IMG/VR virus record: IMGVR_UViG_3300045988_023748
Length of the DNA stretch: 64,000 nucleotides
From: a virus
Strand: one strand, 5' to 3'
The notes below the pieces were generated by a model. The model was not told the DNA's origin. It ran no database searches and saw nothing but the letters and a program-made list of their open reading frames with translations. A program made the translations under genes and the position numbers. Shown here piece after piece: positions 10,045-48,150 of the stretch (position 1 is its first letter; the number at the start of each line of letters is the position of its first letter).

Positions 10045-10059
10045 TATTCCCTTAGTAAT

Positions 10060-10286: not shown

Positions 10287-10310
10287 CACAATTGATGATA
10301 AGAATCTTTT

Positions 10311-12016: not shown

Positions 12017-12046
12017 CACTGACTTTGGGTTAAAACTAGAAAGGGA

Positions 12047-12289: not shown

Positions 12290-12290
12290 T

Positions 12291-12371: not shown

Positions 12372-12402
12372 CTAGAGTAGTAACTTTAAAACTTATTTAA
12401 TT

Positions 12403-12570: not shown

Positions 12571-13027
12571 CTTAAGACCTGAAATTGAAAAGGTTTCAGG
12601 AAGGATTGCAATAGTAGCTTTGTTAATACTATGTTTATGTATTAAAGTATATACTACTCAGTTCTGGCATGATATGAATGTTGACCACAGAGTTAAATGC
12701 AAAGTCATAGACAGAATAGTAGAGGATGAAACTATTACACAAGATGGTAATTCTACTACTAAGAAGGTAAATAAACTTGTATTACAAGCTGAAGGGTTTA
12801 ATAACACATTTAAGCTAGCCGTAGACACTCCAACCTGGAATAGGGCTATTATTAATGGTGTTAAGAATACATTCTATTTTAATATATCTAGAACCGAGTA
12901 CGGACCTTGGCACAATCAGCTTATATGTGTACTCTTACTCTTAGTAACTGGAAGTAGTGGCTGTTCGTTCATAGTGTATAGTGTGCGTTATATAACTAGT
13001 ATAATAAGTCATAACAATGGTAAATAA
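12554..13027 (+). CDS. membrane protein (157 aa)
   Basis: Two hydrophobic segments. Confidence 0.4.
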   Translation: MPTIIDLRPEIEKVSGRIAIVALLILCLCIKVYTTQFWHDMNVDHRVKCKVIDRIVEDETITQDGNSTTKKVNKLVLQAEGFNNTFKLAVDTPTWNRAIINGVKNTFYFNISRTEYGPWHNQLICVLLLLVTGSSGCSFIVYSVRYITSIISHNNGK

Positions 13028-13820
13028 TTTGAATGCGGAAGCTCTACGTAATGCCCTAGTAGTTGCTTCTATGGAGTATTGTAAGAAATACTTGGAAGGG
13101 CAGAATGTCGATAAGACAGAAGATATTAAAGCTCAGATTGCTAAGCTGGAAGCTAATGGATTAGGTAGAACTAAGAATGCTGAAGTACTTCGTACTCTAT
13201 TAACTGCTAAAGGTTCTAGTAAATCTAGAGATGAAATTGCCTCTCTTATTGACAGAATCAAGAAAGTTAGTCCCTCTTGTATGATAGTTCCTTATGATGA
13301 TTTCTTTAAAGTATTGAAGAAGTACAACTTAGCTTGTGGTCCCATTTCAACTTATAAGGGAGTTATCCCTGAAGAGAACATTGAAGCTATTGTAAAGGCC
13401 GGAGAGGAATTGCGTAAAATAAGGAATATTAATAACATGCAATGGGTTCCTAGAATAGATATAGATTCCGATATGCCAAAGAGTATAGTAAATGAAATCG
13501 TTGAATACTTCTCAAGATTCCCGTTTGTAGTGGACGATATCTCTTCTGGATGGCAATATATGCGTGCTATAGGACACCCAGAAGTTGAGGACAGTGTAAG
13601 CTTCAGTCCACTTACCTTAAATGACAGTGACTGGTGTATAGCAGCTCCCTATGATACTATGACAGATAATATAACTATCAGAATGTATTCAGGTAAAGAA
13701 GAGGCTAGAAAACGTCAGCTTGAGGATCCAATTGTCTTTAAGGCAAATGAAATAGGAGCAATTATTGCTACTATGTGGGATACTGAAGCTAAGGATAGCA
13801 TCTTTGATAAATATCGTTAA
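13017..13820 (+). CDS. hypothetical protein, paralog A (267 aa)
   Basis: Shares blocks with 17543..18364 (DDFFKVLKKYNLACGPISTYKGVIPEENIEAI vs EEDFINLNVKYGLVSGPLSYYKGDIPEDNLDEI; tails ...W..EA.D.IFD). Confidence 0.5.
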   Translation: MVNNLNAEALRNALVVASMEYCKKYLEGQNVDKTEDIKAQIAKLEANGLGRTKNAEVLRTLLTAKGSSKSRDEIASLIDRIKKVSPSCMIVPYDDFFKVLKKYNLACGPISTYKGVIPEENIEAIVKAGEELRKIRNINNMQWVPRIDIDSDMPKSIVNEIVEYFSRFPFVVDDISSGWQYMRAIGHPEVEDSVSFSPLTLNDSDWCIAAPYDTMTDNITIRMYSGKEEARKRQLEDPIVFKANEIGAIIATMWDTEAKDSIFDKYR

Positions 13821-13831
13821 CTTATGAATCC

Positions 13832-13939
13832 ATAAGAACATAAAGAGACAAAGCCAGACTAGCTAGCAACGAGGCGAACGGGAGGTATTAAGGTTACATC
13901 AGTGATGATGTAGACACGATGAGCTTTATGTTCTTATTA
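13832..13939 (+). ncRNA. long-range inverted repeat (14-bp stem ataagaacataaag / ctttatgttcttat) enclosing ~80 nt, immediately upstream of a tRNA
   Basis: Perfect 14-bp complementarity between 13832-13845 and 13926-13939. No ORF. Confidence 0.4.
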
Positions 13940-13941
13940 AT

Positions 13942-14016
13942 GGCGACATAGCTCATTTTGGTTAGAGCGTGATACTCATAATATCAAGGTTGGGTGTTCG
14001 AGTCACCTTCTCGCCA
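13942..14016 (+). tRNA. second CAU-anticodon tRNA (Met/Ile2)
   Basis: ggcgaca/tctcgcc acceptor (one C-C mismatch), anticodon arm tgata-ctCATaa-tatca, T-arm gggtg-ttcgagt-cacct. Confidence 0.75.
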
Positions 14017-14041
14017 CATTACTAATTAATACTTAAAGATT

Positions 14042-14443
14042 ATGTACGTAAAGTTTGTAAAAGACGATAAGACAATAGAGGAAGTATCAATCTCATCAGA
14101 GATGATTCCATTCCCTACAGACACAGTGGTGCTAGAAGCTGGCAAATTTACTGTAGAATCCAGAGAGTATGATATACTTGATGGAACTTGTACAGTTATC
14201 CTGGACCAGCAAATCACTTGGACAGAACATCCTCAAGAGTATAATGATGCAATGCTTGCATACAAGAAGCGTTGGAATAATACAATTGATTTGTCATGTG
14301 AAGACTTTTTTAAGATGAAGCAGCTTGTGCAGAGGGGTACCAAACTACAAGCAGTTAAGCATGTAAAGGAGTCTACCAAATGCGGTTTGAAAGAAGCCAA
14401 AGATTTTGTTGATACTTATTGTGATTATGTATTAAATGACTAG
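14042..14443 (+). CDS. protein with ribosomal L7/L12 C-terminal-domain-like segment
   Basis: C-terminus QAVKHVKESTKCGLKEAKDFVDTY resembles the bL12 CTD motif (...GLGLKEAKDLVE...). Confidence 0.5.
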   Translation: MYVKFVKDDKTIEEVSISSEMIPFPTDTVVLEAGKFTVESREYDILDGTCTVILDQQITWTEHPQEYNDAMLAYKKRWNNTIDLSCEDFFKMKQLVQRGTKLQAVKHVKESTKCGLKEAKDFVDTYCDYVLND

Positions 14444-14705
14444 AAGTAGACGTAAAATTCCTATTGTTAAAGGACCTAAAGTTAAACGCAATTGGTATAA
14501 CCGAAGGGTTAAGAGACACCAAAGGCAACAGACTAGAGATATTCTAACACTTAAAGATATCCTAGACTATGAGATTTCTTCTAGTAGGGAGATTGTGAAC
14601 GATTATGATGTATGTGATTATAAATTCGATTATAGGTTTCTAACTCCGTTTATGAAGAGACATGGTTCCTATGGTGAATATGCAAAGAAAGTATTAAGGA
14701 AATGA
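14436..14705 (+). CDS. small highly basic protein (89 aa)
   Basis: N-terminus MTRSRRKIPIVKGPKVKRNWYNRRVKRHQRQQTRD. Start overlaps the previous stop. Confidence 0.45.
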   Translation: MTRSRRKIPIVKGPKVKRNWYNRRVKRHQRQQTRDILTLKDILDYEISSSREIVNDYDVCDYKFDYRFLTPFMKRHGSYGEYAKKVLRK

Positions 14706-14766
14706 AATGGTTGTATCGTCTATTAATCAATTGGATTGATAGATTAAATGAAGAGCAGTGTGAAAT

Positions 14767-14928
14767 ATGATGGTTTTAAGATGTGTATTGGTAACTTTAG
14801 CTGCAATGTCCCTAGGAAGTGCAGTTCTAGCAATGATATGGAATGCCAATGATAAATTCATTAAAGTAATGTTCTCCATATCAATGGTAACTACAATAAT
14901 GTTACTTCTTCTTGCATGTATTGTATAA
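14767..14928 (+). CDS. small membrane protein (~53 aa), not in ORF track
   Basis: ATGATGGTTTTAAGATGTGTA... encodes two hydrophobic helices, read manually. Confidence 0.3.
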   Translation: MMVLRCVLVTLAAMSLGSAVLAMIWNANDKFIKVMFSISMVTTIMLLLLACIV

Positions 14929-14935
14929 TAAGGAT

Positions 14936-15020
14936 GGCGCAGTGTCGGAACTGGTATACGAAACGCACTTAAAATGCGTTGCCCTTTATGGGATTGAGGG
15001 TTCGATTCCCTTCTGCGTCA
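14936..15020 (+). tRNA. tRNA-Leu(UAA), type II
   Basis: 85 nt. ggcgcag/ctgcgtc acceptor, anticodon arm acgca-ctTAAaa-tgcgt, variable hairpin ccc-tttat-ggg, T-arm gaggg-ttcgatt-ccctt. Confidence 0.75.
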
Positions 15021-15039
15021 CAGATGTATCTAAGCTCTG

Positions 15040-15082
15040 GTGGGCAGAAGTGCTCGTGCGGGTTCGACTCCCGTTCTGGCCA
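15040..15082 (+). pseudogene. tRNA 3' fragment (T-arm gcggg-ttcgact-cccgt plus acceptor tctggcc) lacking a 5' half
   Basis: Only ~45 nt separate it from the preceding tRNA, and there is no complementary acceptor strand. Confidence 0.35.
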
Positions 15083-15100
15083 CAATTAAAATTATGTTGT

Positions 15101-15259
15101 ATGCATCAGTGTGATTATTGTTGTTGGTATAATCCAGCAGGGTATTGTGATTGTCCGTTAGTAATGAGAAAGAAGGCTTGTAAGTCTGCTATCAAGACTA
15201 AAGAAAGGACTGAAAATAAGGTAGTAACGTCTAAAGCAGTTAATAATGAAGATTTATGA
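15101..15259 (+). CDS. small Cys-rich protein (52 aa); N-terminal part of track ORF 14912..15259 is spurious (covers tRNAs)
   Basis: MHQCDYCCWYNPAGYCDCPLVMRKKACK... Confidence 0.3.
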   Translation: MHQCDYCCWYNPAGYCDCPLVMRKKACKSAIKTKERTENKVVTSKAVNNEDL

Positions 15260-15743
15260 ATTTCTAAGAAAGGTTACTAAAATTGAATTGTCACAAGTCA
15301 AATATGTATTCGGTGACTGGGATTTAGCTTTAGAGGAATACGTCAATAAATGTGAAAGGCATCGTGCGCCCAATGTAATGGCATTATTAAAACTGTCATC
15401 TACATTGGGCGAACTTGTTGATTTATACAGAGGTCTTGAACTTAAGAGATATCCCATTCCAGAAGCCGAGCTAGAGGCTAAGAAACAACGATATGACACT
15501 TTAATGGAATATTGTTTATGTGGCAATGGAGGACATTTATCTATGTTTGAGAGAATAACTAACGGTTCTAGAATGGAACAGAGATTAAACTTTATTTACG
15601 AAATGCAATTAATGGCTAATGCTATACAAGGTAAAGATGTTGGCAGAAGGAAACTCCTTCGTAACTTCAGAGAAGGGAAATTCCATGACTCCTCTAATCA
15701 AATCGGGACAAAAGCATGTCTTAAGTCCAGTAACCCTAGATAA
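15246..15743 (+). CDS. hypothetical protein (165 aa)
   Basis: ORF track. Overlaps the next ORF by ~125 nt in another frame. Confidence 0.4.
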   Translation: MKIYEFLRKVTKIELSQVKYVFGDWDLALEEYVNKCERHRAPNVMALLKLSSTLGELVDLYRGLELKRYPIPEAELEAKKQRYDTLMEYCLCGNGGHLSMFERITNGSRMEQRLNFIYEMQLMANAIQGKDVGRRKLLRNFREGKFHDSSNQIGTKACLKSSNPR

Positions 15744-15903
15744 AGTAGAAGTGGGAGATATTGTCTTTTGTAAAGTTAAAGGTAGATACTATACTCACTT
15801 AGTCAAAGCTAAGGGAGATAGAGGAGTCCTTATAGGCAACAATCATGGTAAGATTAATGGATGGACTAAATCCGTGTTTGGCAAAGTGACTAAAATATTG
15901 TAA
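15619..15903 (+). CDS. S24 (LexA/UmuD)-like peptidase domain protein
   Basis: GNSMTPLIKSGQKHVLSPV...VGDIVFCKVKGRYYTHLVKAKG matches the S24 GDSM...GD...K architecture. Confidence 0.5.
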   Translation: MLYKVKMLAEGNSFVTSEKGNSMTPLIKSGQKHVLSPVTLDKVEVGDIVFCKVKGRYYTHLVKAKGDRGVLIGNNHGKINGWTKSVFGKVTKIL

Positions 15904-15905
15904 TA

Positions 15906-16079
15906 TGAAAGAGCTATTAAAGAATTGGATACTGAAACTAACGTGTCGGCATAATTGGAAGGAACTAAAGCACATGAATGTATACATGAATGATGAAGAA
16001 ATTCCTTATTCCCATGTATACCTTTTGGTATGCACTAAGTGTGGTAAGTTTAAGCAAGTGAAAATGAAACCAGGCTAGA
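15906..16079 (+). CDS. small Zn-ribbon-like protein (57 aa), not in track
   Basis: ...CRHNWKELKHMNVY...CTKCGKFKQVK, read manually. Confidence 0.3.
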
Positions 16080-16215
16080 GACTGGATTATAATTAACTCA
16101 GGCGATGACAACTAAAGTAGAGTTGAGCGTATGTAATAAGACGTGCTCCGAAGTACAAGGAGTGGGGTGGTTGCAGTATACCTCTTTAGGGACATAAGTC
16201 TTAATCACTGCTCCA

Positions 16216-16287
16216 ACGCCATTAACAATCGTTTTGATCGGGTCCACAGTACGCGTAGTGGCAGGGGTTCGAATCCTCTGATGGCGA
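16216..16287 (+). pseudogene. degenerate tRNA-like element (T-arm agggg-ttcgaat-cctct, acceptor cgccatt/gatggcg) in a GC-richer non-coding block
   Basis: The acceptor and T-arm pair, but the D and anticodon arms do not fold canonically. Confidence 0.25.
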
Positions 16288-16319
16288 CATCCCTTAAGTC
16301 TTGTAACTAAATAACTCTT

Positions 16320-16562
16320 ATGATAATAGGTAAGAAAGTAAATAAGATTACTAGTTCTTCTCTGGCAGAAGAATCCTCCAAGATTATTGATGCATTTCAG
16401 TCTACTGTTAATAAGTTACGTGATGTAGCTAAAAGAGCAGATGATGAGAAAGCAGCTAAAGAACAAGAGATTATTTCATTACAAACTGAGACAGCTAATC
16501 TTAGCGAAGTCTCTAATAAAGCAACTTCCATGGCCGATAAGATTGGAAGTTTACTTCAATAA
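16320..16562 (+). CDS. hypothetical protein (80 aa)
   Basis: ORF track. Confidence 0.4.
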   Translation: MIIGKKVNKITSSSLAEESSKIIDAFQSTVNKLRDVAKRADDEKAAKEQEIISLQTETANLSEVSNKATSMADKIGSLLQ

Positions 16563-16566
16563 TCAA

Positions 16567-17019
16567 ATGGGTAAATTAATAGACATTAAAGACATCGAAT
16601 TTGAATTAGACGAGTTTCTTAATGCTGAGTCTTTCTTAGATTTAGCTAAAGGAGACATAACTAGAGCCTTTGCATTAGGATATCTTAGAGATGAGTTACA
16701 AGAACCTCTTCATGCAGCTATAGATGCTGGTGATAAGGGTTTGCGACTATCTAAGTCATTTGATATGGCTATACAGAAAGTTAGACCTTATGTAAATGAT
16801 ATGACTAAGATATCTGATGAAGAAATGTCTAAGGATGATTTCTCATTGATGGAAGTATGTAATGCTGTATTAGATCAGCTTACATATGAAGAGCCTGAGG
16901 ATGAACTGTATGTTGCATTCGTATTAGGAATGTGGACATTACATTTACTTCACAAAGCAACAGAAGCTGAAACAGATTCCGACGAAGATTTTGTTGAAGA
17001 TCCTACAGCTGATGCATAA
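16567..17019 (+). CDS. acidic hypothetical protein (~150 aa)
   Basis: Probable start at ATG 16567 within track ORF 16441..17019. Confidence 0.4.
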   Translation: MGKLIDIKDIEFELDEFLNAESFLDLAKGDITRAFALGYLRDELQEPLHAAIDAGDKGLRLSKSFDMAIQKVRPYVNDMTKISDEEMSKDDFSLMEVCNAVLDQLTYEEPEDELYVAFVLGMWTLHLLHKATEAETDSDEDFVEDPTADA

Positions 17020-17452
17020 GTATACAATATTTACTGATGGAGCATACTCTCCTGCTAGAAATCAAGGTGGAATAGGATTCGTTATCGTGGAAGATGGAAA
17101 GGAAGTATTCTCCTACAGTAAAATGTATGTAAATAGTACTAATCAAAGAATGGAACTAATGGCAGTTATAGTCGCATTAGAATCCATTAAAACTAGCTCA
17201 GAAGTCATTATAGTTACTGATTCCATGTATATAGTAGGTACTCTTACTAAGAACTGGAAAAGGAAAGCTAATACTGACTTATGGGCTAGACTTGATAGGG
17301 CTATTGAACGTCATAAGCTTATAGACGTGAGATGGGTCAAAGGACATAATGGTTCTGAGTATAATGAGAAAGCTGATAAGCTTGCTTATAATGCTAGCAA
17401 TGAATTAAACTTAAATATGTATGAAATACAAGAAGAAACAACAACGTCTTAG
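16991..17452 (+). CDS. rnh: ribonuclease H
   Basis: FTDGAYSPARNQGGIGFVI ... ELMAVIVALE ... VKGHNGSEYNEKADKLA: RNase HI catalytic D/E/D/H/D architecture. Confidence 0.8.
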   Translation: MLKILQLMHKYTIFTDGAYSPARNQGGIGFVIVEDGKEVFSYSKMYVNSTNQRMELMAVIVALESIKTSSEVIIVTDSMYIVGTLTKNWKRKANTDLWARLDRAIERHKLIDVRWVKGHNGSEYNEKADKLAYNASNELNLNMYEIQEETTTS

Positions 17453-17542
17453 AGACCGTCAAGCATGGTGGGATAAGCAGTCTGATACATTCAAAAGGGC
17501 TACTACAAGACCAGGTTCTATTAAAAAGAAAGCATAAAGATT

Positions 17543-18364
17543 ATGGACACACAAATTGGTACTAGACCCCAAATAGGAGCTCTAGAGATTCATCAAGCTT
17601 ATATATTAGCTAGCTTAAACTGGTTGCAACAAACCAGAAGCTTAGAGATGAATCATGTTGCAATTGAGAAAGCTGAGAAAGCTAAGTTACTAGGATTTGA
17701 TCACTCTTCAGTTATTACAGATGCTGAGAAGTATATGAATAACTTAGAGACTTTTAAATGCTATAACTTCTTCTCGCAGAACTTCCCTGGATGCATTATA
17801 CTCAAAGAGGAAGATTTTATTAATCTGAATGTTAAGTATGGATTGGTATCCGGGCCACTATCGTATTATAAAGGTGATATACCAGAAGATAATCTGGATG
17901 AAATCTTGGCTACTAAGACTACACTAGACTCGTTAACGGATAATAAATACTCTAATCGTGATAATGCTCTTATTACTAACGTAAAAGTCAATGTCAGAAG
18001 GAGTAGTACTTCAAATCCATACTCTCACTATAACTTTTATCGTGAAGAGCCTGTTTCCGAAGGTCTAATATTCTTACAATACCACAAGAAAGAACTTCTA
18101 GCGTATCCATTTGCCAAGTATTGGAATGGAAGAACTGAGGGAGTAACTATGTCTCATACTGCCTGTAAATCTACAGACTTATTTATAGCTGCGCCAGTAG
18201 ACGATATGCAACAACTGGTATCTTTTACTGAAACTGAGATAAGAGTAATGCCGCGAAGTATTGATCCATTTGTATTCCAAGTGACCCCAATAGGTGTTGT
18301 TATCTATTCTAAATGGGGAGAAGAAGCCAGTGATGCTATCTTTGATAATGTAAAACCTTTATAA
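17543..18364 (+). CDS. hypothetical protein, paralog B of 13017..13820
   Basis: Shared sequence blocks (see 13017). Confidence 0.5.
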   Translation: MDTQIGTRPQIGALEIHQAYILASLNWLQQTRSLEMNHVAIEKAEKAKLLGFDHSSVITDAEKYMNNLETFKCYNFFSQNFPGCIILKEEDFINLNVKYGLVSGPLSYYKGDIPEDNLDEILATKTTLDSLTDNKYSNRDNALITNVKVNVRRSSTSNPYSHYNFYREEPVSEGLIFLQYHKKELLAYPFAKYWNGRTEGVTMSHTACKSTDLFIAAPVDDMQQLVSFTETEIRVMPRSIDPFVFQVTPIGVVIYSKWGEEASDAIFDNVKPL

Positions 18365-18376
18365 AATTTAATTATC

Positions 18377-20389
18377 GTGGAATTTATTGATTTTAAACGA
18401 GCAGTTTATAAGCAATTTGATGCCTTAGCTAATAATGCTGATAGATTGTATTTAACTAATGTTAATAAGGATGAGCTGTGGGATTGTTACATAGATTCTT
18501 ATCCAGAAGACGAGAGACAATCACATACATGTAATTGCTGTCGTCAATTTATCAAACCTTATGGCAATGTAGTTGCAATAGTTAATAACAAGTTAGTAAG
18601 TATTTGGGATTCCTTAGTGTTAGATGAACCTTATGCTACAGTAGCCAGAAACTTAGCCCAACTTGTTAAATCTAAACCAGTATGTGACGTATTTGTTAGT
18701 AAGGTGGTTAAACTGGGTACAGATAAGAACAATGTGTGGATAGAAACTCCTACGAGACACGTACATACATGGAATCATTTATTTTACAAGCTTCCTAATC
18801 ATTTACTTTGTGCAGTATCTGATTCTGAAGAAGCAGTAAGAGGAGCACTTCGTACCAATAAAACAGTATTGAAGCGGGCTTTGGATGAGTTATCCATGGA
18901 TGCTTTTGACATTGTTCTGGATTTGATTTCACAAGGTTCTTTGTATCGTGGAGACCAGTACAAATCCGATCTAGAGGCATTTGTTGCACTTAAGAAGAAA
19001 TATGAAGTAGTACCCCGTGAGGAACGTGATAATTTCTGCTGGGTTGAATCTGCTAAAGTTGGATATGTAGGACGTATTAGGAATACTGCTATAGGCACTT
19101 TGCTTGTAGACATCTCCAATGGACGTGAACTTGATGAAAGTGTAAGAGCTTACGAGAGAATAGTAGCTCCTGCTAATTATCAAAGACCTAAGACAATAGC
19201 TACTAAGAAGATGATTCAAGCTGCTGAAGCTAGGGTTATTGAACTAGGGCTAATGGATGCACTTCCAAGGCGACATGCAGAAATTACTGACATTACAGTT
19301 AATGATGTAATCTTTGCTGATAGAAATGCTAAGAAGTCAATGCTTGGGAATAGTGTATTCCAAGATTTAGCGGAAGATATTCCAGTTAATCCTAAGAAAT
19401 TAGGTACTGTTGCTGAAATATCAATTGAGGACTTTATTAAGGATGTTGTTCCCAATGCTACCAGTATAGAAGTTCTATTAGAAAGTAGACATATAAACAA
19501 CCTTATGACTCTAACAGCTCCATCTAATAAAGATGCAAAGAATCTATTTAAATGGCCAAACAATTTCGCTTGGACATACAATGGAGACCTTGCAGATTCT
19601 TCTATTAAGGATAAGGTGCAGGCTGCTGGAGGTAAGGTGAATGGATATCTAAGGTGTTCTCTTGCATGGTATAATGGTGATGATTTAGACATCCATATCA
19701 TACAACCTTGGGGTAGTGAAATCAATTACTCGTGTAGAGCTGGAGCCTCTGGTGGGGTGCTAGATGTCGACATGAATGCTGGTGGTATACATTCTCGTAA
19801 ACCAGTAGAGAACGTTATCTGGGAGGATGAACCGCGTATGGAAGGTATGTATACCGTATATGTACACAATTTCTGCAAAAGAGATTATCACGATGTTGGA
19901 TTTACTGTTGAAATTGAATGTAACGGAGAAGTACGTGAGTATACCTACACAACAGATCTTCGAGGTCGTGATAAAGTGACAGTAGCCAGATTTGAGTATT
20001 CTAAGGCCAAGGGAATTGTCATACATGATGTCCTTCCGAGTAATTCAAGTGATAAAGAGACGTGGAACTTGTCTACTAACAAATTCCATAAGGTATCGTT
20101 ACTCACTCTGTCTCCAAATTATTGGAACGGTGCAGAAGTAGGCAATAAACACTATTTCTTTATCTTAGATGGGTGCAAGAATCCATCTCCAGTAAGAGGA
20201 TTCTTTAACGAATATCTTAGGAGTGAACTATCTCAGGATCGTAAGACATTTGAGATGTTAGCTAATAAGATGAAGGCTCCTTATTCTGATAATCAGTTGA
20301 GTGGTTTAGGATTCTCATCTACCATCCGCAATAGTGTTATCTGTAAAGTTACTGGCAGCTTTACAAGAACCATTAAAGTTAACTTTTAA
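18377..20389 (+). CDS. large hypothetical protein (670 aa)
   Basis: Long ORF with an N-terminal Cys cluster HTCNCCRQF. No domain recognisable by eye. Confidence 0.55.
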   Translation: MEFIDFKRAVYKQFDALANNADRLYLTNVNKDELWDCYIDSYPEDERQSHTCNCCRQFIKPYGNVVAIVNNKLVSIWDSLVLDEPYATVARNLAQLVKSKPVCDVFVSKVVKLGTDKNNVWIETPTRHVHTWNHLFYKLPNHLLCAVSDSEEAVRGALRTNKTVLKRALDELSMDAFDIVLDLISQGSLYRGDQYKSDLEAFVALKKKYEVVPREERDNFCWVESAKVGYVGRIRNTAIGTLLVDISNGRELDESVRAYERIVAPANYQRPKTIATKKMIQAAEARVIELGLMDALPRRHAEITDITVNDVIFADRNAKKSMLGNSVFQDLAEDIPVNPKKLGTVAEISIEDFIKDVVPNATSIEVLLESRHINNLMTLTAPSNKDAKNLFKWPNNFAWTYNGDLADSSIKDKVQAAGGKVNGYLRCSLAWYNGDDLDIHIIQPWGSEINYSCRAGASGGVLDVDMNAGGIHSRKPVENVIWEDEPRMEGMYTVYVHNFCKRDYHDVGFTVEIECNGEVREYTYTTDLRGRDKVTVARFEYSKAKGIVIHDVLPSNSSDKETWNLSTNKFHKVSLLTLSPNYWNGAEVGNKHYFFILDGCKNPSPVRGFFNEYLRSELSQDRKTFEMLANKMKAPYSDNQLSGLGFSSTIRNSVICKVTGSFTRTIKVNF

Positions 20390-20400
20390 ATGAAAATGTT

Positions 20401-20775
20401 ATGTTTGAGAAAGCATCAAGGGTAAAATTACGTTATTCCACTAATCGTGGAGTATTATCTGTTGAAGATTTGTGGGATTTATCTCTGGAACAACTTGATC
20501 CTATTGCTATTAATCTTAATAAGAGGCTAAAGGAATCACAAACCGAAAGTTTCATTAAGATTCGTACTAAAGACACCACTGAACTTGAACTGAAATTCAA
20601 TATTGTAAAACACATTATTGACGTTAAGTTACAGGAACAGGAAGAACGCATTGTAGCTGCTGAGAAGAAAGCTAAGCGTCAAAAGATTCTTGATCTCATG
20701 GCTAAGAAACAGGATGCAGAGCTTGAGAGTAAATCTTATGAAGAATTGGCTAAAGAGCTTGAAGCATTGTCTTGA
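20401..20775 (+). CDS. coiled-coil hypothetical protein
   Basis: ORF track. KE-rich. Confidence 0.45.
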   Translation: MFEKASRVKLRYSTNRGVLSVEDLWDLSLEQLDPIAINLNKRLKESQTESFIKIRTKDTTELELKFNIVKHIIDVKLQEQEERIVAAEKKAKRQKILDLMAKKQDAELESKSYEELAKELEALS

Positions 20776-20778
20776 GTT

Positions 20779-21039
20779 ATGAATTCTGAGAGAGAATTAG
20801 AGAAGTGGCAAAAGGTAAATAGTGCAGAGACCAAAGAACAGTTATTTGAAGCTGTAGATTTTATTTGCGCTGATGAACCTAATGGACTAATTGGTACTAC
20901 TGGTAAATTATTTACTGCCGACAAATTGAAAAGAAGCATTAATGCAGCCATAACTGGAAGGTTTAATGCCAATGTTGTTACACGTAGATACGGTTTAAGG
21001 CAGCAAGTATTGTACTTAATGTACTATGGTATAGAATAA
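20779..21039 (+). CDS. hypothetical protein (86 aa)
   Basis: ORF track. Confidence 0.4.
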   Translation: MNSERELEKWQKVNSAETKEQLFEAVDFICADEPNGLIGTTGKLFTADKLKRSINAAITGRFNANVVTRRYGLRQQVLYLMYYGIE

Positions 21040-21271
21040 TTATAATAGAGGGGATGTAGGCTTAAAAGCGGCCATCATTTAAAGAGTTGCGAGTAGGTTT
21101 CTATTGAAGTATAATTAGGCAGCATCCTTACTGATAGCCTCGAATCAAGAATGTAATAATGTCGTTTAGAATACTCATGTTGAAACTGCCTATATAGACG
21201 GAGGAAGGTAAACGAGATAAGAGTGAAACTCAGTCAGAGCATTTGGCGTAACAGCACACCCTCTATTCTTT

Positions 21272-21343
21272 AGTCTTATAGTTTAACGGATAGAATACCA
21301 TACTACGGATATGGAGGTTTCAGTTCGATTCTGAATAAGACTA
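21272..21343 (+). tRNA. tRNA-Arg(ACG)
   Basis: agtctta/taagact perfect acceptor, anticodon arm ccata-ctACGga-tatgg, T-arm ttcag-ttcgatt-ctgaa. Confidence 0.8.
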
Positions 21344-21518
21344 CTAATTTAATAAATATGGAAAGAGAATTGTATAACTGGTTGGAAAGAGAGTTCTATA
21401 AAAGTAATCACACTAAATATCATAGATATTTTAAAGAATGGATTACTAATATATGTCCCCATCAAGTTGAGGGCTTTAGAAATCAAATGATTGGCCAACT
21501 AACTAAATCTAAAGTGAA

Positions 21519-21827
21519 ATGACAGATGTTGTAAGTGTTCTTAAAAAAGCTAAAGAATTATTTGTAACCCACCCTGAATACTGGGGAATGTGTTTCTGTA
21601 TAGAACACGCTATGGCAGGAACCGAACGTGGAATCACTATTTATAGCCAACGTGATATAATTACCATGATTCCAGAATTTAACAGGAAGTTTCTAAATGC
21701 TCCTAAAGACAGGTATGGTAAAGCTTATTGGTGGACCCCTGATAGTGAGGAAGGACATAATGCTAGAGTTAAAGCATTTGATAAACTTATTAAGTACTAT
21801 GAACTGGATAAGAAGAATCATGAATAA
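21519..21827 (+). CDS. hypothetical protein (102 aa)
   Basis: ORF track. Confidence 0.4.
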   Translation: MTDVVSVLKKAKELFVTHPEYWGMCFCIEHAMAGTERGITIYSQRDIITMIPEFNRKFLNAPKDRYGKAYWWTPDSEEGHNARVKAFDKLIKYYELDKKNHE

Positions 21828-22164
21828 ACTGTTTATTGACAATGAATCGTTTGATATTGATGAAGATGATATTACCCTGTCACAAATAAAGAATAGAATT
21901 TATGTGAATGGTAAATTAATATCTGAAGTCAATAATGATAGTGTACATATCAGTTTTACTGGTAATGTAAAGGAGCTTAACTGTAATACATGTGACATTG
22001 ATGGAAACGCTCTTACTGTACATGGTAATAGTGTCAAAGTTAAAGGTAATGTAGGAGGTAGTATAGAAGCTAACAGCATCGAAGTAGGTGGTGATGTAGA
22101 GGGAGATATTACTGCTAACTCTGTTAAAGTAAGAGGTAAACATACCGGATCTATTAGTATGTAA
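21821..22164 (+). CDS. bactofilin-like beta-helical repeat protein
   Basis: Repeats NSVKVKGNVGGSIEANSIEVGGDVEGDITANSVKVRG follow the bactofilin GxVxGxI pattern. Probable start at ATG 21821 within track ORF 21697..22164. Confidence 0.4.
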
Positions 22165-22171
22165 CCGTCAA

Positions 22172-22245
22172 GGCTTGATAGCTCAATAGTATAGAGCATC
22201 TCCGTCCTAAGGAGCAGGTTGTGGGTTAGAGTCCCACTCAAGTCA
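22172..22245 (+). tRNA. tRNA-Arg(CCU) with unusual T-loop (ttagagt) and G32
   Basis: ggcttga/tcaagtc acceptor, gctc-aatagtata-gagc, loop gtCCTaa, T-arm gtggg-ttagagt-cccac. Confidence 0.6.
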
Positions 22246-28716: not shown

Positions 28717-29030
28717 ATGGCAGACTTATTTGGAAATATTACCAGAAGTGAACGTCAAGCTTTAGGTGTTCAACGATGGGTTAATAACAGATTATGTGGA
28801 AGTCTAGTCTATTGTACCGGTTTCGGTAAGACTAGAACTGCCATTATGTGTATGAAGAGATTCTTGGCTAAGAATCCTGGAAAGAGTGTTATAATAGTAG
28901 TACCTACAGATGCTTTGCAAAGACAATGGTTAGCAGATTTAGCTGAGCAAAAAGTACCTAAAGTTTATCAGGTGCTTATCATTAATACTGTAGTAAGAAA
29001 GGAATGGAATTGTGATCTATTAATACTGGA
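28717..29030 (+). CDS. SF2 DExH helicase, exon 1 (Walker A to the aspartate of motif II)
   Basis: GFGKTRTA P-loop. The ORF ends ...LLILD then intron-encoded R-stop. It joins exon 2 to make LLILD-ECH, the DECH box. Confidence 0.7.
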
Positions 29031-29303
29031 TAGGTGACATTTGTCCAGTATAAACTCCTCTAATTGCCGGAAGTCCCTTAGAGCTTTAAGTACTGTAATC
29101 TAGTGGTAACATTAGAGGTCACTCAAGTTAACGCTTGAGGTGTAGTAATAATCTTAAAGATTGGGTAATCACATTAAAAGGCAGCCAAGCATCCTACTTT
29201 AGGATGAAGGTTCATCGACTATCTCGAAAGAGAGTACAGACGTATTACATATTTATGACTGTAATAAATAAGCAATATGTTTGGAAACGGGGAGAGCTTG
29301 TAG

Positions 29304-29311
29304 TATCTTTG
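29304..29311 (+). promoter_or_regulatory. Bacteroidetes-type -7 box TATCTTTG upstream of intron GIY-YIG gene
   Basis: TAnnTTTG 24 nt before ATG 29335. The same box precedes other endonuclease genes at 1291, 45586 and 62831, with variants at 41677 and 47237. Confidence 0.5.
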
Positions 29312-29334
29312 CATAGAAACTAATAAAGTATTAC

Positions 29335-30084
29335 ATGAGTAAAACTTATCAATTCTATGCGTTATTTAATGAGGAATTTCCTCAAGAATGGAGATACATT
29401 GGAGTAACTAGTAAACAGATCAATGAAAGATTCTCTCATCATAAATATTGTGCGACTCATGATTCCCATAGAGCCTTACCAGTGCATAAATGGATGTATT
29501 CCGTTTACAGCAAAGGAGGTAAGATAGGGTGGGTGAAGATTCATGAATGTAGTGAATCTGAATGGGAGTATGAAGAACAAAGGCTAATCTCTGAAAATTC
29601 TAAAGTACATGAACTTCTTAATTTAGACAAAGGTGGTAAAGGAGTTATTACTAAAGATAAGAGAGATAGGTCTGGTATCGAGAGAAGTGTAGAAGCTCAT
29701 AAGAAGAGTATAATACAATTAGACAAGAACGGGAATTTTGTTCAGGAGTTTGATGCAGTAACATCTGCATCAGAATTAACAGGAATTTCTAGAACTAGTA
29801 TAGGTAATTGTCTAAGGGAGAGGTCTAAAACAGCAGGTGGATATGTATGGGTATATAAGGAACATTATTCTAAAGCAGAAGTTGCTGATATTCCTCCTAG
29901 TAAAGGAAGGAACATTAGAGTATTTAAATATTCACCTGATATGGAACTTATATGTGAATACAATTCTATATCTAAAGCTGTTAGTGGTGTGTGTAAATCT
30001 GGACATACATTAACAAGACATCTGGATACTAATGAGTTATACAAAGGATTTTACTGGTTTACGTCCAAGCAAGTTAAGATATAG
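29335..30084 (+). CDS. GIY-YIG homing endonuclease
   Basis: YQFYALFNEE...WRYIGVTSKQINERFSHH GIY-YIG motifs, with C-terminal DNA-binding repeats. Confidence 0.7.
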   Translation: MSKTYQFYALFNEEFPQEWRYIGVTSKQINERFSHHKYCATHDSHRALPVHKWMYSVYSKGGKIGWVKIHECSESEWEYEEQRLISENSKVHELLNLDKGGKGVITKDKRDRSGIERSVEAHKKSIIQLDKNGNFVQEFDAVTSASELTGISRTSIGNCLRERSKTAGGYVWVYKEHYSKAEVADIPPSKGRNIRVFKYSPDMELICEYNSISKAVSGVCKSGHTLTRHLDTNELYKGFYWFTSKQVKI

Positions 30085-30115
30085 TCAGGCTGTTAGGGAA
30101 ACCTAATAGGTTTTG

Positions 30116-31075
30116 GAGTGTCATAAATATGCCTCCGATTTATTTGGAAAGGTGTTCGAAGTAGTTAAGTATAAAATAATTCTAGGCTTAACAGCAACTA
30201 TGGAAAGGCTTGATGGTAAAGACAGTTACATCAAGAAGTATTGTCCTGTAGTTGATAGAGTAGATGTTAGTGAAGCTACTGCCAGAGGCTGGTTGTCTCC
30301 TTATAGGGAGTACAAAGTCTTAATAGAAGTAGATGATCTAAGCAAGTATCTAGAATTAAATAGAGAGTTTTACGATCATTTCTCTTTCTTTAACCATGAT
30401 TTTACCTTAGCTATGGCATGTGCTTCTAAATGGCAGAAACGCATTGAATTAGCTAAGAGAATGTGTCCTGATTATGCTAATAAGCCTGACGAATTTAAGG
30501 CTATTAATAAACAGATTCTAATACATGCAATGGGGTTTAACAGAGCCCTGCAAGGAAGGAAGCAGTTTATATATAACCATCCTAAGAAGATAGAACTTAC
30601 TGATTTAATATTGAAGCACCGTCAAGACAAGAAATGTATTACGTTTAGTAAGACAATTAAGGTCGCGGAGAAGATTGGATATGGTAAAGTGTTATCTAGT
30701 AAGGAAACTAAGAAGAAAGGGCGTATGACCTTGGAGGAATTCAAGGAAGCTAAAGTGGGAGTACTTAATACCTCTAAAATGTTGGACGAAGGTGCTGACA
30801 TTCCGGGATTGTCTGTAGCTGTTATTCTTGGATTTGATTCTAGTCCTACTACTAAGACACAAAGAATTGGCAGAGTTATTAGGAAGGCGGAGAACAAAGT
30901 GGCAGAAGTATTTACCTTTGTAATTAAAGGAACTGTTGAAGAAGAATGGTTTCGTAAAAGTACTAGTGGTAAAGATTTCATAACCATAGACAGCTCTAAT
31001 CTGCTAGATGTCTTAGAAGGAAGAGAATTTACTCCTAAGAAGAACAAAGAAACTAAAATGATATTTAGATTCTGA
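30116..31075 (+). CDS. SF2 DExH helicase, exon 2
   Basis: Begins ECHKYAS (rest of DECH). TAT motif LGLTATM, motif VI QRIGRVIR. The track start at 30113 is a TTG, so there is no independent ATG. Confidence 0.7.
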   Translation, partial: ECHKYASDLFGKVFEVVKYKIILGLTATMERLDGKDSYIKKYCPVVDRVDVSEATARGWLSPYREYKVLIEVDDLSKYLELNREFYDHFSFFNHDFTLAMACASKWQKRIELAKRMCPDYANKPDEFKAINKQILIHAMGFNRALQGRKQFIYNHPKKIELTDLILKHRQDKKCITFSKTIKVAEKIGYGKVLSSKETKKKGRMTLEEFKEAKVGVLNTSKMLDEGADIPGLSVAVILGFDSSPTTKTQRIGRVIRKAENKVAEVFTFVIKGTVEEEWFRKSTSGKDFITIDSSNLLDVLEGREFTPKKNKETKMIFRF

Positions 31076-44443: not shown

Positions 44444-45490
44444 ATGTTAGTAATTAAAAGAAATAAGAGAGTAGAACCTTTCGATATTAATAAGATTGAC
44501 GCGGCTATTACTAAGGCGTTCAATGCTGTTAACGAACCAATTGATTCCGATATTTTGGATGATATTAAAGATGAATTGTATATTAACAACATAGTATCAG
44601 TAGAAGAGCTTCAAGATCAAATTGAAAAGGCTTTGATGGCTTGTGATTACTATGATGTCGCTAAAGCATTCATTTTGTATCGACATAAACAAGCTGAACT
44701 TAGAGCATTAGCTGGGAAGAAGCAGTTTATTAAGGATTATGCCAAAGCATCTAATGCTGCTACAGGTAGTAAATATGATGCTAATGCCAATGTTACTGAG
44801 AAGAATATAGTAACTTTAAATGGAGAGTTGTTTAAGGGTGATGTAATTAAAGTTAATAGAGCAATCCTTACAGATAAAATTAGGCAGTTATATGGTGAAG
44901 ATTTAGCTAAGGAGTATATTAGACAACTGGAATCTCATGAACTTTACAAGCATGATGAAACATCAATTATGCCCTACTGCGTGGCTATCACTATGTATCC
45001 GTTCCTACTTGAAGGGCTACAGCCAATTGGAGGTTTGTCTGCCAAGCCTAAGAATCTGGACTCCTTCTGCGGTATGTTTGTTAATCTGGTATTTGCTATC
45101 AGCTCGCAATTCGCTGGAGCAGTAGCTACTGGTGAGTTCCTAATGTATTTCGATTATTTCGCTCGTAAAGAATGGGGTGATGATTATTGGAAACGTCCAG
45201 AAGAGATGGTTGATAAACATAGAAATATTGATAAGACTATTGAACAGAAGTTCCAACAGATTGTATATTCAATCAATCAACCAGCAGCTGCTCGTAACTT
45301 CCAATCAGTATTCTGGAATATCAGTTATTTTGATAAGAATTACTTTGAAGGTTTATTTGGTGAGTTTGTATTCCCCGATGGAACTAAGCCCATATGGGAT
45401 TCTTTGAACTGGTTACAGAAGAAGTTTATGACTTGGTTTAACGAGGAGAGGACTAAGTGCATATTAACGTTCCCTGTGAATTTCGCAGCT
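44444..45490 (+). CDS. nrdD: anaerobic ribonucleotide reductase NrdD, exon 1 (ATP-cone plus N-terminal catalytic region)
   Basis: ATP-cone VIKRNKRVEPFDINKIDAAITKA. Terminates at a TGA that is followed by intron core blocks. Confidence 0.65.
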
Positions 45491-46295
45491 TGATAGAGTA
45501 ATCTATCTCGAACAACTCCTCTAATTGCTGGGACATCTTAACATTAATTAATGGTAGAAAGTTAGGAAATGTAAGTAAATTACATTATCTTTGCACTAGA
45601 TAATTAGTATTAAGACAATCAGCAGCTAAGCATTATGGAAGAAATTTGGAAAGAAATCCCTAACTATGAAGGGTACTTTGAAGTAAGTACTTTAGGTAAC
45701 TTTAGAAGTAAAGATAGAATTATCAAGTATAAGCAATCTGGAACTCGTAATTATCCTGGCAAATCACTTAAAGTAGAGGTTATGCAAGATGGTTACAGTA
45801 GGATTGTGTTAATGAAAGAAGGTGTTAAGAAAAGATATATGTGTCATAGGCTTGTAGCTGAGACGTACATACCAAATCCTGACAACAAACCTTACGTTAA
45901 TCATATAGATGGCAATCGTTCTAATAACTGTGTAGAGAACCTAGAATGGTGCACACAGTCAGAGAATGAAAGACACTCTGTAGATGTACTTGGTAAGTCT
46001 ATGAAGGGGAAGACTGCTCCAAAGGCAGTCAGATGTATAGAGAATGATACTATATATAAATCTATGAGTGAAGCAGTACGCCTTATAGGTAAGCCATCTT
46101 GTGTGGAAGGGTTACATAAAGCTATCAATGCTAATAGGTTGTATCATGGATATACATTTGAGTTCTGTAATGAAAGTTCAACGACTATCTCGAAAGAGAG
46201 TACACTGTAAGCTATTGACAGTGGAAATGGGGAGAATCCTAATAGGATTGTGATATAGTCTGACCTGTATGGTGACATACAGCAGTTCATAAGAG
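45491..46295 (+). mobile_element. group I intron 1 in nrdD with HNH endonuclease (boundaries approximate)
   Basis: AACTCCTCTAATTGCTGGGA is shared with the helicase intron (29058), as are CGACTATCTCGAAAGAGAGTACA and CCTAATAGG. GATATAGTC motif plus a P9-like hairpin ctgtatggtgacatacag. Confidence 0.55.
45635..46210 (+). CDS. HNH homing endonuclease (NUMOD4 plus HNH)
   Basis: EIWKEIPNYEGYFEVSTLGNFRS, then VNHIDGNRSNNCVENLEWCTQSENERH. Confidence 0.8.
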   Translation: MEEIWKEIPNYEGYFEVSTLGNFRSKDRIIKYKQSGTRNYPGKSLKVEVMQDGYSRIVLMKEGVKKRYMCHRLVAETYIPNPDNKPYVNHIDGNRSNNCVENLEWCTQSENERHSVDVLGKSMKGKTAPKAVRCIENDTIYKSMSEAVRLIGKPSCVEGLHKAINANRLYHGYTFEFCNESSTTISKESTL

Positions 46296-47123
46296 AACGC
46301 ATATAGTGTAGCGAACTATATGGAACATATGTGGGAAACTGTAGCACTTCTTACTGATGGAGAGGATGTAGTAGATAAAGAATGGGCAGACTTTACAGCA
46401 GAGATGTATAGTAAGGGACACTCATTCTTTACTTATATGTCTGATTCAGCAGATAGTCTGTCAAGTTGTTGTAGACTTCGCAATGAAGTAACTGATAATC
46501 AATTTAGTTATTCTCTTGGAGCTGGTGGTATTGCTACTGGTAGCAAATCTGTAATGACTTTAAATATTAATAGATTAGTTCAAGATGCAGTTAATAACGG
46601 ATACGATATGATTGAGTATTTACGTGAAAACGTTCAGAAAGTTCATAAATATCAAACTGCATATAATGAATTACTCAAAGACTATTTAAATGATGGTTTA
46701 CTAACTGTCTATTCTGCTGGATTCATTCATATGAAGAAACAGTATTTGACTGTAGGTGTTAATGGAGTTATCGAAGCTGCTGAGTTCTTAGGAATTCCAG
46801 TTAATGATAATCCTACTTACAGAGAATTTATGCAATCTATCCTTAAAACTATTAGCGATGAAAATCGTAAAGCTAGAACTAAGGAGTTGATGTTTAACTG
46901 TGAGTTTGTCCCAGCGGAGAACCTGGGAGTTAAACATGCTATGTGGGACAGGAAGGCAGGTTACTTTGTACCAAGAGATTGCTATAATAGTTACTTCTAT
47001 GCTGTAGAAGATACTTCCTTGACTATACTTGATAAATTTAAACTACATGGTAAAGATTATATCAAGTATCTTGATGGTGAACAATCGCCTGTTATATCTT
47101 TGCGTTTAACCAGACGGGTATAG
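46296..47123 (+). CDS. nrdD: NrdD exon 2 (middle region)
   Basis: The in-frame reading opens at 46296 after the last upstream stop. The track ORF starts at ATG 46320. Confidence 0.55.
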   Translation, partial: NAYSVANYMEHMWETVALLTDGEDVVDKEWADFTAEMYSKGHSFFTYMSDSADSLSSCCRLRNEVTDNQFSYSLGAGGIATGSKSVMTLNINRLVQDAVNNGYDMIEYLRENVQKVHKYQTAYNELLKDYLNDGLLTVYSAGFIHMKKQYLTVGVNGVIEAAEFLGIPVNDNPTYREFMQSILKTISDENRKARTKELMFNCEFVPAENLGVKHAMWDRKAGYFVPRDCYNSYFYAVEDTSLTILDKFKLHGKDYIKYLDGEQSPVISLRLTRRV

Positions 47124-48140
47124 TAATTAACTATGCTAACGGGGAAGCCTGAAGCTTGAGTCGTGAGACTAGATGTATGGTAATCCCGTGGGAAATTAAT
47201 TATGATGTATGAGTTGCACATCTCCATTTAAATTAGTAAATTTGTAGAAATTATTAATATAATGATCATCTATAAAATTACTAACAGTATTAACGGCAAG
47301 GTGTATATAGGTTTAACTACAGTTACACTAGAAGCAAGATGGAGAGGTCACATAAGAGACAGTAGAGTGTGTGATAGACACTTATATAGGTCTATGCGTA
47401 AATACGGTCTTGAGAACTTTACTATAGAAGAGATAGATAATACTGACGACTTTAAGAAGCTTGGGGAATTAGAGAGGTACTATATAAAGACCTTTGATTC
47501 CAGGAATCCTGATAAAGGATATAATATTACTGGGGGAGGTGAATCTAACCAGTTAGACGGAAACCCTAGAGCTAAACTTAAAGTGGAAGATGTAATTCAA
47601 ATTCGAGAGATTTACTCTTATGGAGACTTGAGATGTAAGGAATGTTGGGAGATGTTTAAGGATAGAATCTCCTACTCAGCATTTCAGAAGATTTGGGAAG
47701 GAATTACTTGGCAATCTGTTATGCCGGAAGTTTATACTGAATCTAATAAAGTACATCATAGTTCTCAAAAGAGTAATCCAGGAAGTTTGAATGGTAATGC
47801 AATATACTCTGACGAAGAAGTCTTAGAGATACGTAAGTATTATACTAATCATACCTTAACAGAAACATATGAGAAGTATGGTAGCAGAAGTAAATCTAAA
47901 GATAGCTTTAGAGGTTTAATTGCTAATTCATATAAACATCTTCCAATCTACAGTAAAGTTAAATCTGCCTGGCTACTTAATGGTCAGGAGATAAACATTG
48001 ATAATTATAATCCTGTATCGACTATCCTCGGATCGGAGGAGTAAGGCAGCTATTGGTACGCTGCTTGAAATGGATATTGCGGAAGTACTTCCGTTAAGAT
48101 ATAGTCAGTGCTAATGGAAACATTAGATAAACACGGGTAG
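47124..48140 (+). mobile_element. group I intron 2 in nrdD with GIY-YIG endonuclease (different intron family; boundaries approximate)
   Basis: GAGACTAGATG (P7 5'-like) at 47170 and TTAAGATATAGTCAG (P7 3'-like) at 48083. A TAAATTTG box precedes the ORF. Confidence 0.5.
47262..48044 (+). CDS. GIY-YIG homing endonuclease
   Basis: IIYKITNSINGKVYIGLTTVTLEARWRGH. Confidence 0.7.
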   Translation: MIIYKITNSINGKVYIGLTTVTLEARWRGHIRDSRVCDRHLYRSMRKYGLENFTIEEIDNTDDFKKLGELERYYIKTFDSRNPDKGYNITGGGESNQLDGNPRAKLKVEDVIQIREIYSYGDLRCKECWEMFKDRISYSAFQKIWEGITWQSVMPEVYTESNKVHHSSQKSNPGSLNGNAIYSDEEVLEIRKYYTNHTLTETYEKYGSRSKSKDSFRGLIANSYKHLPIYSKVKSAWLLNGQEINIDNYNPVSTILGSEE

Positions 48141-48150
48141 CGCCCTCCAC

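Follow-up and report, generated by a model that had tools for sequence, protein, structure and literature searches.

Analysis of a 64,000-nucleotide stretch of viral DNA (IMG/VR record IMGVR_UViG_3300045988_023748, hereafter the window) revealed a helicase gene that is interrupted at positions 29032 to 30115. Our analysis indicates that the interrupting element is very probably a splicing, mobile group I intron that carries a gene for a GIY-YIG homing endonuclease, and profile searches identify the interrupted gene as that of an XPB/Rad25-like superfamily 2 (SF2) helicase. Some doubt remains, as Rfam misses the 5' domain of the element, and splicing catalysis, promoter activity, endonuclease activity and the cleavage site are inferred from the sequence. 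A group I intron at this place had been proposed in an initial annotation of the same DNA, and the proposal is supported by the P1 and P10 pairings and the terminal G, a partial match to the Rfam group I model (RF00028), homology to an intron of Bacillus phage AR9, covariation and the existence of exact intron-less alleles.

All features described here lie on the plus strand. Exon 1 (28717..29031; 105 codons), delimited from the list of open reading frames (ORFs) and its Pfam ResIII/DEAD match, runs from the Walker A sequence GFGKT to LLILD in motif II. Exon 2 (30116..31075; 319 codons and a stop) continues from ECHKY in motif II through the TAT of motif III to the C-terminal helicase domain, with Pfam matches to Helicase_C and ERCC3_RAD25_C. 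As the DNA stands, the upstream ORF (28717..29037) ends in ...LLILD-R-stop, the aspartate codon GAT occupying 29029-29031 and the stop TGA (29035-29037) ending the exon 1 frame two codons into the insert. The downstream ORF (30113..31075) reads (M)ECHKYAS, with the glutamate codon GAG from 30116, and has TTG as its sole start; this TTG, at 30113, is made of the last three bases of the insert. Both the TTG-only start and a split falling inside the DExH box (D|ECH) had been noted, and both were found as described, the split being LLILD|ECHKY.

Joining 28717-29031 to 30116-31075 gives a protein of 424 amino acids (aa), the predicted spliced junction being ...CTATTAATACTGGAT|GAGTGTCATAAATAT..., with CTGGAT|GAGTGT at the join. 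In Pfam the joined protein contains one continuous ResIII (6.6e-17) and Helicase_C (7e-13), and the unjoined pieces each contain just part of ResIII. Motif I (GxGKT), motif II (DExH), motif III (TAT) and the C-terminal RecA-like domain are found in one polypeptide only once the exons are joined. The best matches of the joined protein among solved structures are archaeal XPB/Rad25 proteins (E=1.6e-18, HMMER), and one block of the XPB/Rad25 alignment passes unbroken through ...llildechkyas..., across the D|E junction. The joined helicase also matches PHROG 16, DNA helicase (1.5e-43). UvsW, which had been suggested as a target for alignment, turned out to be less close to the joined protein than archaeal XPB/Rad25, and was rejected as the nearest helicase.

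A scan of IMG/VR with the joined helicase protein returned 36 loci. Loci L004-L009 have a single ORF of 1272 nt whose protein is 100% identical to the predicted spliced product, and in all uninterrupted loci, among them L004-L010 and L039, the last 30 nt of exon 1 abut the first 30 nt of exon 2 with a gap of 0. Viral contigs approximately 99.8% identical to the window have the uninterrupted helicase; between L004 and the joined exons of the window there are 2 differences in 1275 nt, and the flanking 1 kb on either side shows 99.5-99.9% identity. The L004 type and the window are the same phage without and with 29032-30115. A one-base shift of the boundary in either direction fails to give the uninterrupted sequence, and the element is therefore exactly 1084 nt long. 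The boundaries derived from base pairing, described below, coincide to the nucleotide with this natural insertion/deletion polymorphism, and the observation is more than chance. The matches of two other loci, L033 and L034, to the helicase protein (tblastn) start at residue 106, the first residue of exon 2. In the intron-less locus L039 (4001-5258), the 3' part of the helicase gene diverges sharply from the window, with many nucleotide differences from about +637 on, and the downstream 1 kb is just 27.6% identical without gaps, which suggests an indel or a recombination breakpoint.

The exact endonuclease protein of the insert is recorded in 262 blocks of public assemblies, and in eight of the eight places shown, on contigs of up to 182 kb, it has a ResIII fragment of 106 aa on one side and a Helicase_C fragment of 320 aa on the other; the arrangement is therefore not an assembly artefact. 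The same data bear on the suggestion that the insert is some other intervening element, namely an intein, a group II intron or an assembly chimera, which we consider extremely improbable. Inteins target helicase motifs too, as in phage Twort (PMC5526547), but here the reading frame closes two codons into the insert, and Pfam gives neither a Hint nor an intein match. A group II intron is opposed by the lack of a reverse transcriptase and of any group II match in Rfam, and a chimera by the recurrence of the arrangement on many independent contigs from different samples. The stop codon, the Pfam result and the public assemblies effectively refute these explanations.

The pairings expected at the ends of a group I intron were found at these boundaries. 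P1 (29026..29048) unites the exon end CUGGAU (29026-29031) with the guide GUCCAG (29043-29048), 11 nt into the insert, by the six standard pairs that the initial annotation had indicated, and the U29031.G29043 pair sits at the 5' splice site. P10, an 8-bp pairing absent from that annotation, is formed by the guide UGACAUUU (29035..29042), which makes eight standard pairs with GAGUGUCA of exon 2 (30116-30123). The P10 guide overlaps the in-frame UGA (29035-29037) that stops exon 1 translation on unspliced RNA. In L034, which has an insert at the same site, an exon change of G to A at 30118 leaves the P10 pair intact. The last base of the insert, G30115, is the predicted terminal G (omega-G) at the 3' splice site, as fixed by the intron-less alleles; it lies 29 nt past the P7-like block AAGATATAGTC (30076-30086), after which a terminal G had been noted.

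Between these ends, the contiguous 5' domain of the putative ribozyme (29055..29294) extends from P3 to P3'. It comprises P3 (29055-60/29289-94), P4 (29065-70/29169-70+29180-83), P5 (29075-77/29163-65), P5a (29084-90/29153-59), P5b (29099-105/29110-16), P5c (29122-28/29133-39), P6 (29184-85/29210-11), P6a (29190-96/29200-06), P7.1 (29222-25/29230-33; UCUC-GAAA-GAGA) and P7.2 (29237-46/29274-83). P7 is formed by five standard pairs between GACUA (29217-21) and UAGUC (30082-86), and P8 by five between GCUUG (29296..29300) and CAAGC (30066-30070), with the endonuclease gene in its loop. J8/7 (30071-81) lies between the 3' strands of P8 and P7, and the P9 hairpin CUGUUAGG-GAAA-CCUAAUAG (30090..30109), which the RF00028 alignment covers, has eight standard pairs, with several pair types among relatives. 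Helices were assigned by threading from Rfam-aligned relatives, with three coordinates corrected by hand; P3, P4, P5, P5a-c, P6a, P7, P7.1, P8 and P9 are all formed by standard pairs. A minimum free energy fold of the whole ORF-deleted intron gives the local hairpins P1, P5b, P5c, P6a, P7.1, P7.2 and P9 and misses the long-range P3, P7 and P8, and these three were placed by homology threading. P7.1/P7.2 helices between P7 and P3' mark subgroup IA in the Michel-Westhof classification, and their presence in this IA-like element points to its membership of that subgroup.

Related introns were found in other phages. In a blastn search space of 2.3 Gb of phage records, window positions 29040-29223 match Bacillus phage AR9/PBS1 (E=7e-8), Prevotella Lak-B phages (4e-10) and the faecal contig MT839577 (4e-11). 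The AR9 match lies inside an RF00028 match of 69.2 bits, in a virion RNA polymerase beta gene annotated from six pieces. On the MT839577.1 contig, a human faecal phage (positions 431-800), the related intron has a near-identical P6-P7 region, and its GIY-YIG ORF (…KSGIYSIICAINGKQYIG…) begins soon after P3', a placement like that in the helicase intron. A 22-nt block spanning P7 and P7.1 occurs in more than 119 viral loci, with GATATAGTC at most 200 nt downstream in 107 of them, and two of these loci (L132 and L156) match RF00028 with 107 and 98 bits. GATATAGTC is enriched in the window (4 copies against 0.96 expected). Profiles (nhmmer) built from the block-sharing loci gave, among the other candidate introns of the window described below, a strong signal for nrdD intron 1 and a weak one for the 3' cores of the remaining two. 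This broad family was too heterogeneous, and the comparison was therefore narrowed to a sub-family, A2. A covariance model built from the introns of other phages was dropped, as its 3' tails were misaligned and its members had been chosen by similarity to the window, so that little would be gained over the blastn E-values.

Covariation was tested on A2 as a nine-sequence alignment of the contiguous P3-to-P3' domain. Paired cells amounted to 90.2%, compared with 71% in shuffled alignments and approximately 40% with the partners slid. The tested structure came from the window itself, and this raises the share of paired cells but not the counts of double changes. Both sides had changed in 37 of 59 pairs against 7-12 in the slid controls, and the covariation score was 0.435 against 0.144, a level that none of 500 shuffles reached. 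Comparison of the window with L034 revealed compensatory C-G to U-A changes in P5 (29075/29165) and P7.2 (29241/29279) and several changes from wobble to Watson-Crick pairs; only the first pair of P8 and the closing pair of P6a are weakened.

Besides the inflated percentage of paired cells, several results weigh against a functional group I intron. RF00028 gave no match at its gathering threshold (50 bits), a scan of the whole window returning tRNAs only, and below that threshold the model scores just 33 nt (30074-30106; J8/7-P7'-P9) with 17.7 bits (E=0.094). The ORF-free 5' domain alone was unmatched by RF00028, even with the stretch ended at P3', an arrangement by which the truncated-hit mode was to score this domain and which failed. 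The nhmmer profiles from the loci sharing the P7-P7.1 block missed the helicase intron. No P2 helix could be placed, P4 requires a bulge of 9 nt, and P8 has just 5 bp with its first pair A.C in L034; P8 is also without covariation support in relatives, which have a different P8 sequence. Finally, the intron-bearing lineages compared are two or three only. The Rfam check proposed in the initial annotation returned the partial 17.7-bit score and nothing at gathering level. This partial match covers model positions 219-251, and P7 (GACUA/UAGUC) and the J8/7 block agree with the consensus. The 750-nt ORF in P8 explains the Rfam failure on the whole element but not on the 5' domain, where the failure probably reflects the absent P2, the long P5 extension, the P4 bulge and the long P7.2.

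The absent P2, bulged P4, short P8 and failure of Rfam on the 5' domain would also fit a decayed group I intron that no longer splices, the helicase being a pseudogene or dispensable, as would an endonuclease C-terminus about 57 aa shorter than in most homologues. Such decay is, in our estimation, very unlikely. The exons are intact and only 2 of 1275 nt away from the uninterrupted allele, and the ratio of nonsynonymous to synonymous divergence (dN/dS) between the window and L034 lineages is 0.064 for the helicase. The ribozyme helices have kept their pairing by compensatory change between the same two lineages, the dN/dS of the endonuclease is 0.073, and the intron-bearing allele is abundant, given the 262 blocks of public assemblies.

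A highly unlikely explanation is that the insert is a free-standing endonuclease cassette that does not splice, with products of 106 aa and 320 aa (the latter from the TTG at 30113) translated separately and reassembling. Public gene callers do list separate 106-aa and 320-aa genes, the TTG is present and Rfam recognises no complete intron; genes fractured by endonuclease inserts are also known (PMC2677866). On the other hand, the non-coding parts of the insert are more conserved (95-97%) than the exons (79-81%) and contain compensatory base-pair changes, which are not expected of a mere spacer. P1 and P10 pair exactly at the indel boundaries, and the TTG consists of the insert's own last three bases. 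A split inside motif II would leave free polypeptide ends that disrupt the ATPase site, and neither helicase fragment has split-intein (Hint) domains.

The endonuclease ORF (29335..30084; 750 nt, 249 aa) lies between the helicase pieces in the P8 loop. Its product has an N-terminal GIY-YIG domain (approximately residues 1-98) followed by NUMOD1 / I-HmuI-like helix-turn-helix modules (Pfam). The GIY-YIG domain proposed in the initial annotation proved right, though by fold and family only, and was below threshold in Pfam for the window protein itself (PF01541, 17.5 bits against a gathering score of 22.6; E=0.005). The homologue search found 78 relatives, and PF01541 is matched by 14 of 27 full-length homologues at E<=0.01 (best 2.7e-9). 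In the alignment of these 27 members (A1), Y21, G23, R32, H36 and E81 never vary, and the conservation of Y8 and N96 reaches at least 90%; judging from matching spacing, we take the A1 residues to correspond to Y6/Y17/R27/H31/E75/N90 of I-TevI. The AlphaFold model has a mean pLDDT of 81.9 (87-98 over the first 90 residues), and its catalytic domain shows the GIY-YIG alpha/beta fold. Foldseek gave a marginal match to T4 EndoII (E=0.23). Searches of the PDB by phmmer and by profile found only the DNA-binding module of I-HmuI and no similarity to I-TevI, and BLASTP against the clear GIY-YIG ORF elsewhere in the window gave no match. The PHROGs label 'HNH endonuclease', given to the DNA-binding part, was set aside as misleading.

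The dN/dS of 0.073 between the window and L034 indicates that the endonuclease gene is under purifying selection and therefore encodes a functional protein. The window protein and homologues P0001, P0003, P0064 and P0012 (249-258 aa) lack the 50-57 or so C-terminal residues of most homologues of about 306 aa, and these missing residues form a further DNA-binding repeat. The last endonuclease codons and the stop UAG (30082-30084) overlap P8', J8/7 and P7' of the ribozyme core. With a putative host-type promoter inside the ribozyme and an ORF running through P8'/J8/7/P7', it is a tentative idea that a single RNA could serve either endonuclease expression or splicing, but not both.

A promoter-like TTTG-N20-TATCTTTG of the Bacteroidota -33/-7 type is found at 29280..29311, 24 nt before the endonuclease ATG. 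The primary sigma factor of Bacteroidota, sigma-ABfr, has as its consensus TAnnTTTG at -7 and TTTG around -33 (PMC7366714). The -7 box TATCTTTG (29304-29311) is identical in L034, where G29279, beside the -33 TTTG, is replaced by A. Each of the four intron endonuclease ORFs of the window is preceded, at a distance of 25-49 nt, by a TAnnTTTG box, compared with 8 of 95 ORFs overall (hypergeometric P=2e-5), and the box occurs three times as TATCTTTGCA. The endonuclease-linked boxes are at 29304, 45586, 47237 and 62831, and those of other ORFs at 1291, 31305, 39308 and 41678. The initial annotation had credited the endonuclease with a promoter box of its own; the TAnnTTTG box at all four endonuclease ORFs agrees with this, but the full two-part pattern TTTG-N19-21-TAnnTTTG is not enriched in the window (2 sites against 0.96 expected). 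It is plausible that the endonuclease has its own host-type promoter, and the distribution of the boxes suggests that the endonuclease genes bring host-type sigma-ABfr promoters along. The boxes also point to a host among the Bacteroidota, which this gut phage probably infects.

A mechanism consistent with these features can be proposed. The helicase gene would be transcribed through the intron, and on unspliced RNA translation of exon 1 would stop at the UGA two codons into the intron. The ribozyme would fold so that P1 presents the U.G pair 29031/29043, free guanosine bound at P7 would attack the 5' splice site, and the 8-bp P10 would bring in exon 2; G30115 would then enter the G site and the exons would be ligated, restoring ...LLILDECHKY... 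and the 424-aa helicase. The ORF in the P8 loop would encode an I-TevI-like GIY-YIG endonuclease with NUMOD/HTH modules (HTH, helix-turn-helix), probably expressed from its own TAnnTTTG promoter. In a mixed infection this enzyme would cut intron-less alleles, and repair from the intron-bearing copy would insert the intron (homing).

Comparison of intron-bearing alleles revealed histories that fit homing. The insert of L034, also 1084 nt long and at the same site, is 90.9% identical to that of the window, whereas the exons are 78.8% and 80.6% identical. By part, the ribozyme regions are 95.4% and 96.8% identical and the endonuclease gene 88.8%, and the synonymous divergence (dS) is 0.57 for the endonuclease against 1.44 for the helicase. 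L033 (IMGVR_UViG_3300000290_000040, positions 1-288) has a window-type exon 2 with 11 of 960 positions different (98.9% identity), while at its 3' end the intron shares 95.9% identity with L034 but just 85% with the window; its endonuclease gene has a 6-nt in-frame deletion. A second intron variant, as read from these sequences, is found in a window-type helicase allele. The intron and exon histories of L033 and L034 disagree, as expected for homing, and there has been lateral transfer of the intron between helicase lineages. The shared insertion site in two helicase lineages and this incongruence lend indirect support to the predicted site-specific cutting of intron-less alleles.

One exon base deserves mention in this context. 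G29028, in a CTG codon four nt before the splice site, is present in both intron-bearing alleles (window and L034), whereas the nearest intron-less relatives in both helicase lineages have CTT; both codons specify leucine. G29028 pairs with guide C29046 in P1, where T would give a U.C mismatch. The intron-less L011 has G at 29028 too. Around the insertion, the two intron-bearing alleles have only 8 nt in common on the upstream side and 2 nt on the downstream side, with no wider co-conversion tract. On the ordinary reading, G29028 is a passive co-conversion scar. A more tentative idea, which we regard as rather doubtful, is that selection acts on the P1 compatibility of the target, which would itself decide which alleles can keep the intron; if so, CTT alleles would be partly refractory, an inserted intron splicing poorly in an essential gene.

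The element resembles known phage introns in several respects. Like the T4 td intron with I-TevI (group IA2, GIY-YIG), it interrupts a DNA-metabolism gene of a phage as a group I intron, self-splicing in td and predicted to splice here, and in both the frame of the upstream exon closes soon after the intron begins. The td endonuclease has its own promoter, as that of the window plausibly does, and the td ORF is located in P6. The two differ in host gene (thymidylate synthase in td, a helicase here) and in the place of the ORF, which in the window is in P8 and runs into J8/7 and P7'. The DNA-binding part of the window endonuclease is NUMOD1 / I-HmuI-like, unlike that of I-TevI, and no P2 was found in the window intron. 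The AR9/PBS1 and Prevotella Lak introns share with it a P3-P7 domain approximately 72% identical over 130-175 nt, the P5a-c extension and P7.1 (A2). They differ in host gene and host phylum and are compact with no P8 ORF, and their P3, P5a and P6a sequences differ from the window with the pairing kept.

Group I introns in helicase genes were reported for the staphylococcal myoviruses Romulus/Remus, K and G1 (PMC5526547), which are alike in the target but unrelated to the window in phage group and host. The gut 'Jug' jumbo phages of Bacteroides/Phocaeicola have, in the accessible text of PMC12880540, many group I introns splitting terL, nrdD and DNA polymerase genes, with HNH, GIY-YIG and LAGLIDADG endonucleases and splicing confirmed by metatranscriptome reads. 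The window too has split nrdD and DNA polymerase genes; the Jug genomes are 360-402 kb, whereas contigs with the window element reach about 180 kb, and a helicase target is not mentioned in that accessible text. As a rule, group I introns of phages sit in conserved genes of DNA metabolism, and the codons at which homing endonucleases aim are functionally critical (PMC3984707).

Other interrupted genes were observed in the window and in a relative. An nrdD-like anaerobic ribonucleotide reductase gene (44444-48423) is apparently in three pieces, with ORFs at 44444-45493, 46320-47123 and 48151-48423. Its first insert has a NUMOD4 + HNH_3 ORF (45635-46210), an RF00028 match at 45976-46282 (29.2 bits, E=5e-4) and nhmmer matches with E of 4e-9 and 1e-18; its second has a clear GIY-YIG ORF (47262-48044; PF01541, 5.6e-9) with GATATAGTC at 48098. 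A family A DNA polymerase gene (60727-63867) is also split, the exon ORF 60727-62640 being followed by an insert and the gene resuming at about 63631 (...VHDEHNVEAPE...). The ORF in its insert (62868-63584) encodes a zinc-ribbon, maybe HNH-like, protein, and the 3' end of this ORF overlaps GATATAGTC at 63547, a layout shared with the helicase intron; this insert has only a weak 3'-core profile match (E=0.02). In a 44%-identical relative, L003 (MT835492.1, 1732-3110), the helicase gene is interrupted inside Walker A (...STGFG | KSRIG...) by an insert of about 1.2 kb with a LAGLIDADG-type ORF (1968-2927), the DEAH box being intact. The exon ends in T and the insert in G; Rfam gave no group I match for this insert and it was not called a group I intron. 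Twelve tRNA genes, all on the plus strand, are scattered over the first third of the window (2562-22245).

In view of the earlier reports of introns in phage helicase genes, in Jug phages and in DNA-metabolism genes, the window element adds an ordinary case to a familiar class of selfish genetic elements, and the understanding of group I introns is unchanged. Public gene calls (L161-L168) show two separate small genes (106 aa, and 320 aa from the TTG) and, as a hypothetical protein, the endonuclease with only weak NUMOD matches, the intron being unrecognised; once the intron is taken into account, an XPB-like helicase of 424 aa is recovered for a gut phage lineage that is abundant. Standard Rfam screening misses such phage introns with an internal ORF and, for this sub-type, even the 5' domain free of the ORF, and intron counts for gut phages are therefore probably underestimates. 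Near-identical genomes with and without the intron coexist in this phage population, together with another variant of the intron in the same helicase allele and a diverged lineage that has the same intron. Metagenomes alone could serve here for the study of homing, co-conversion and intron-exon co-adaptation.

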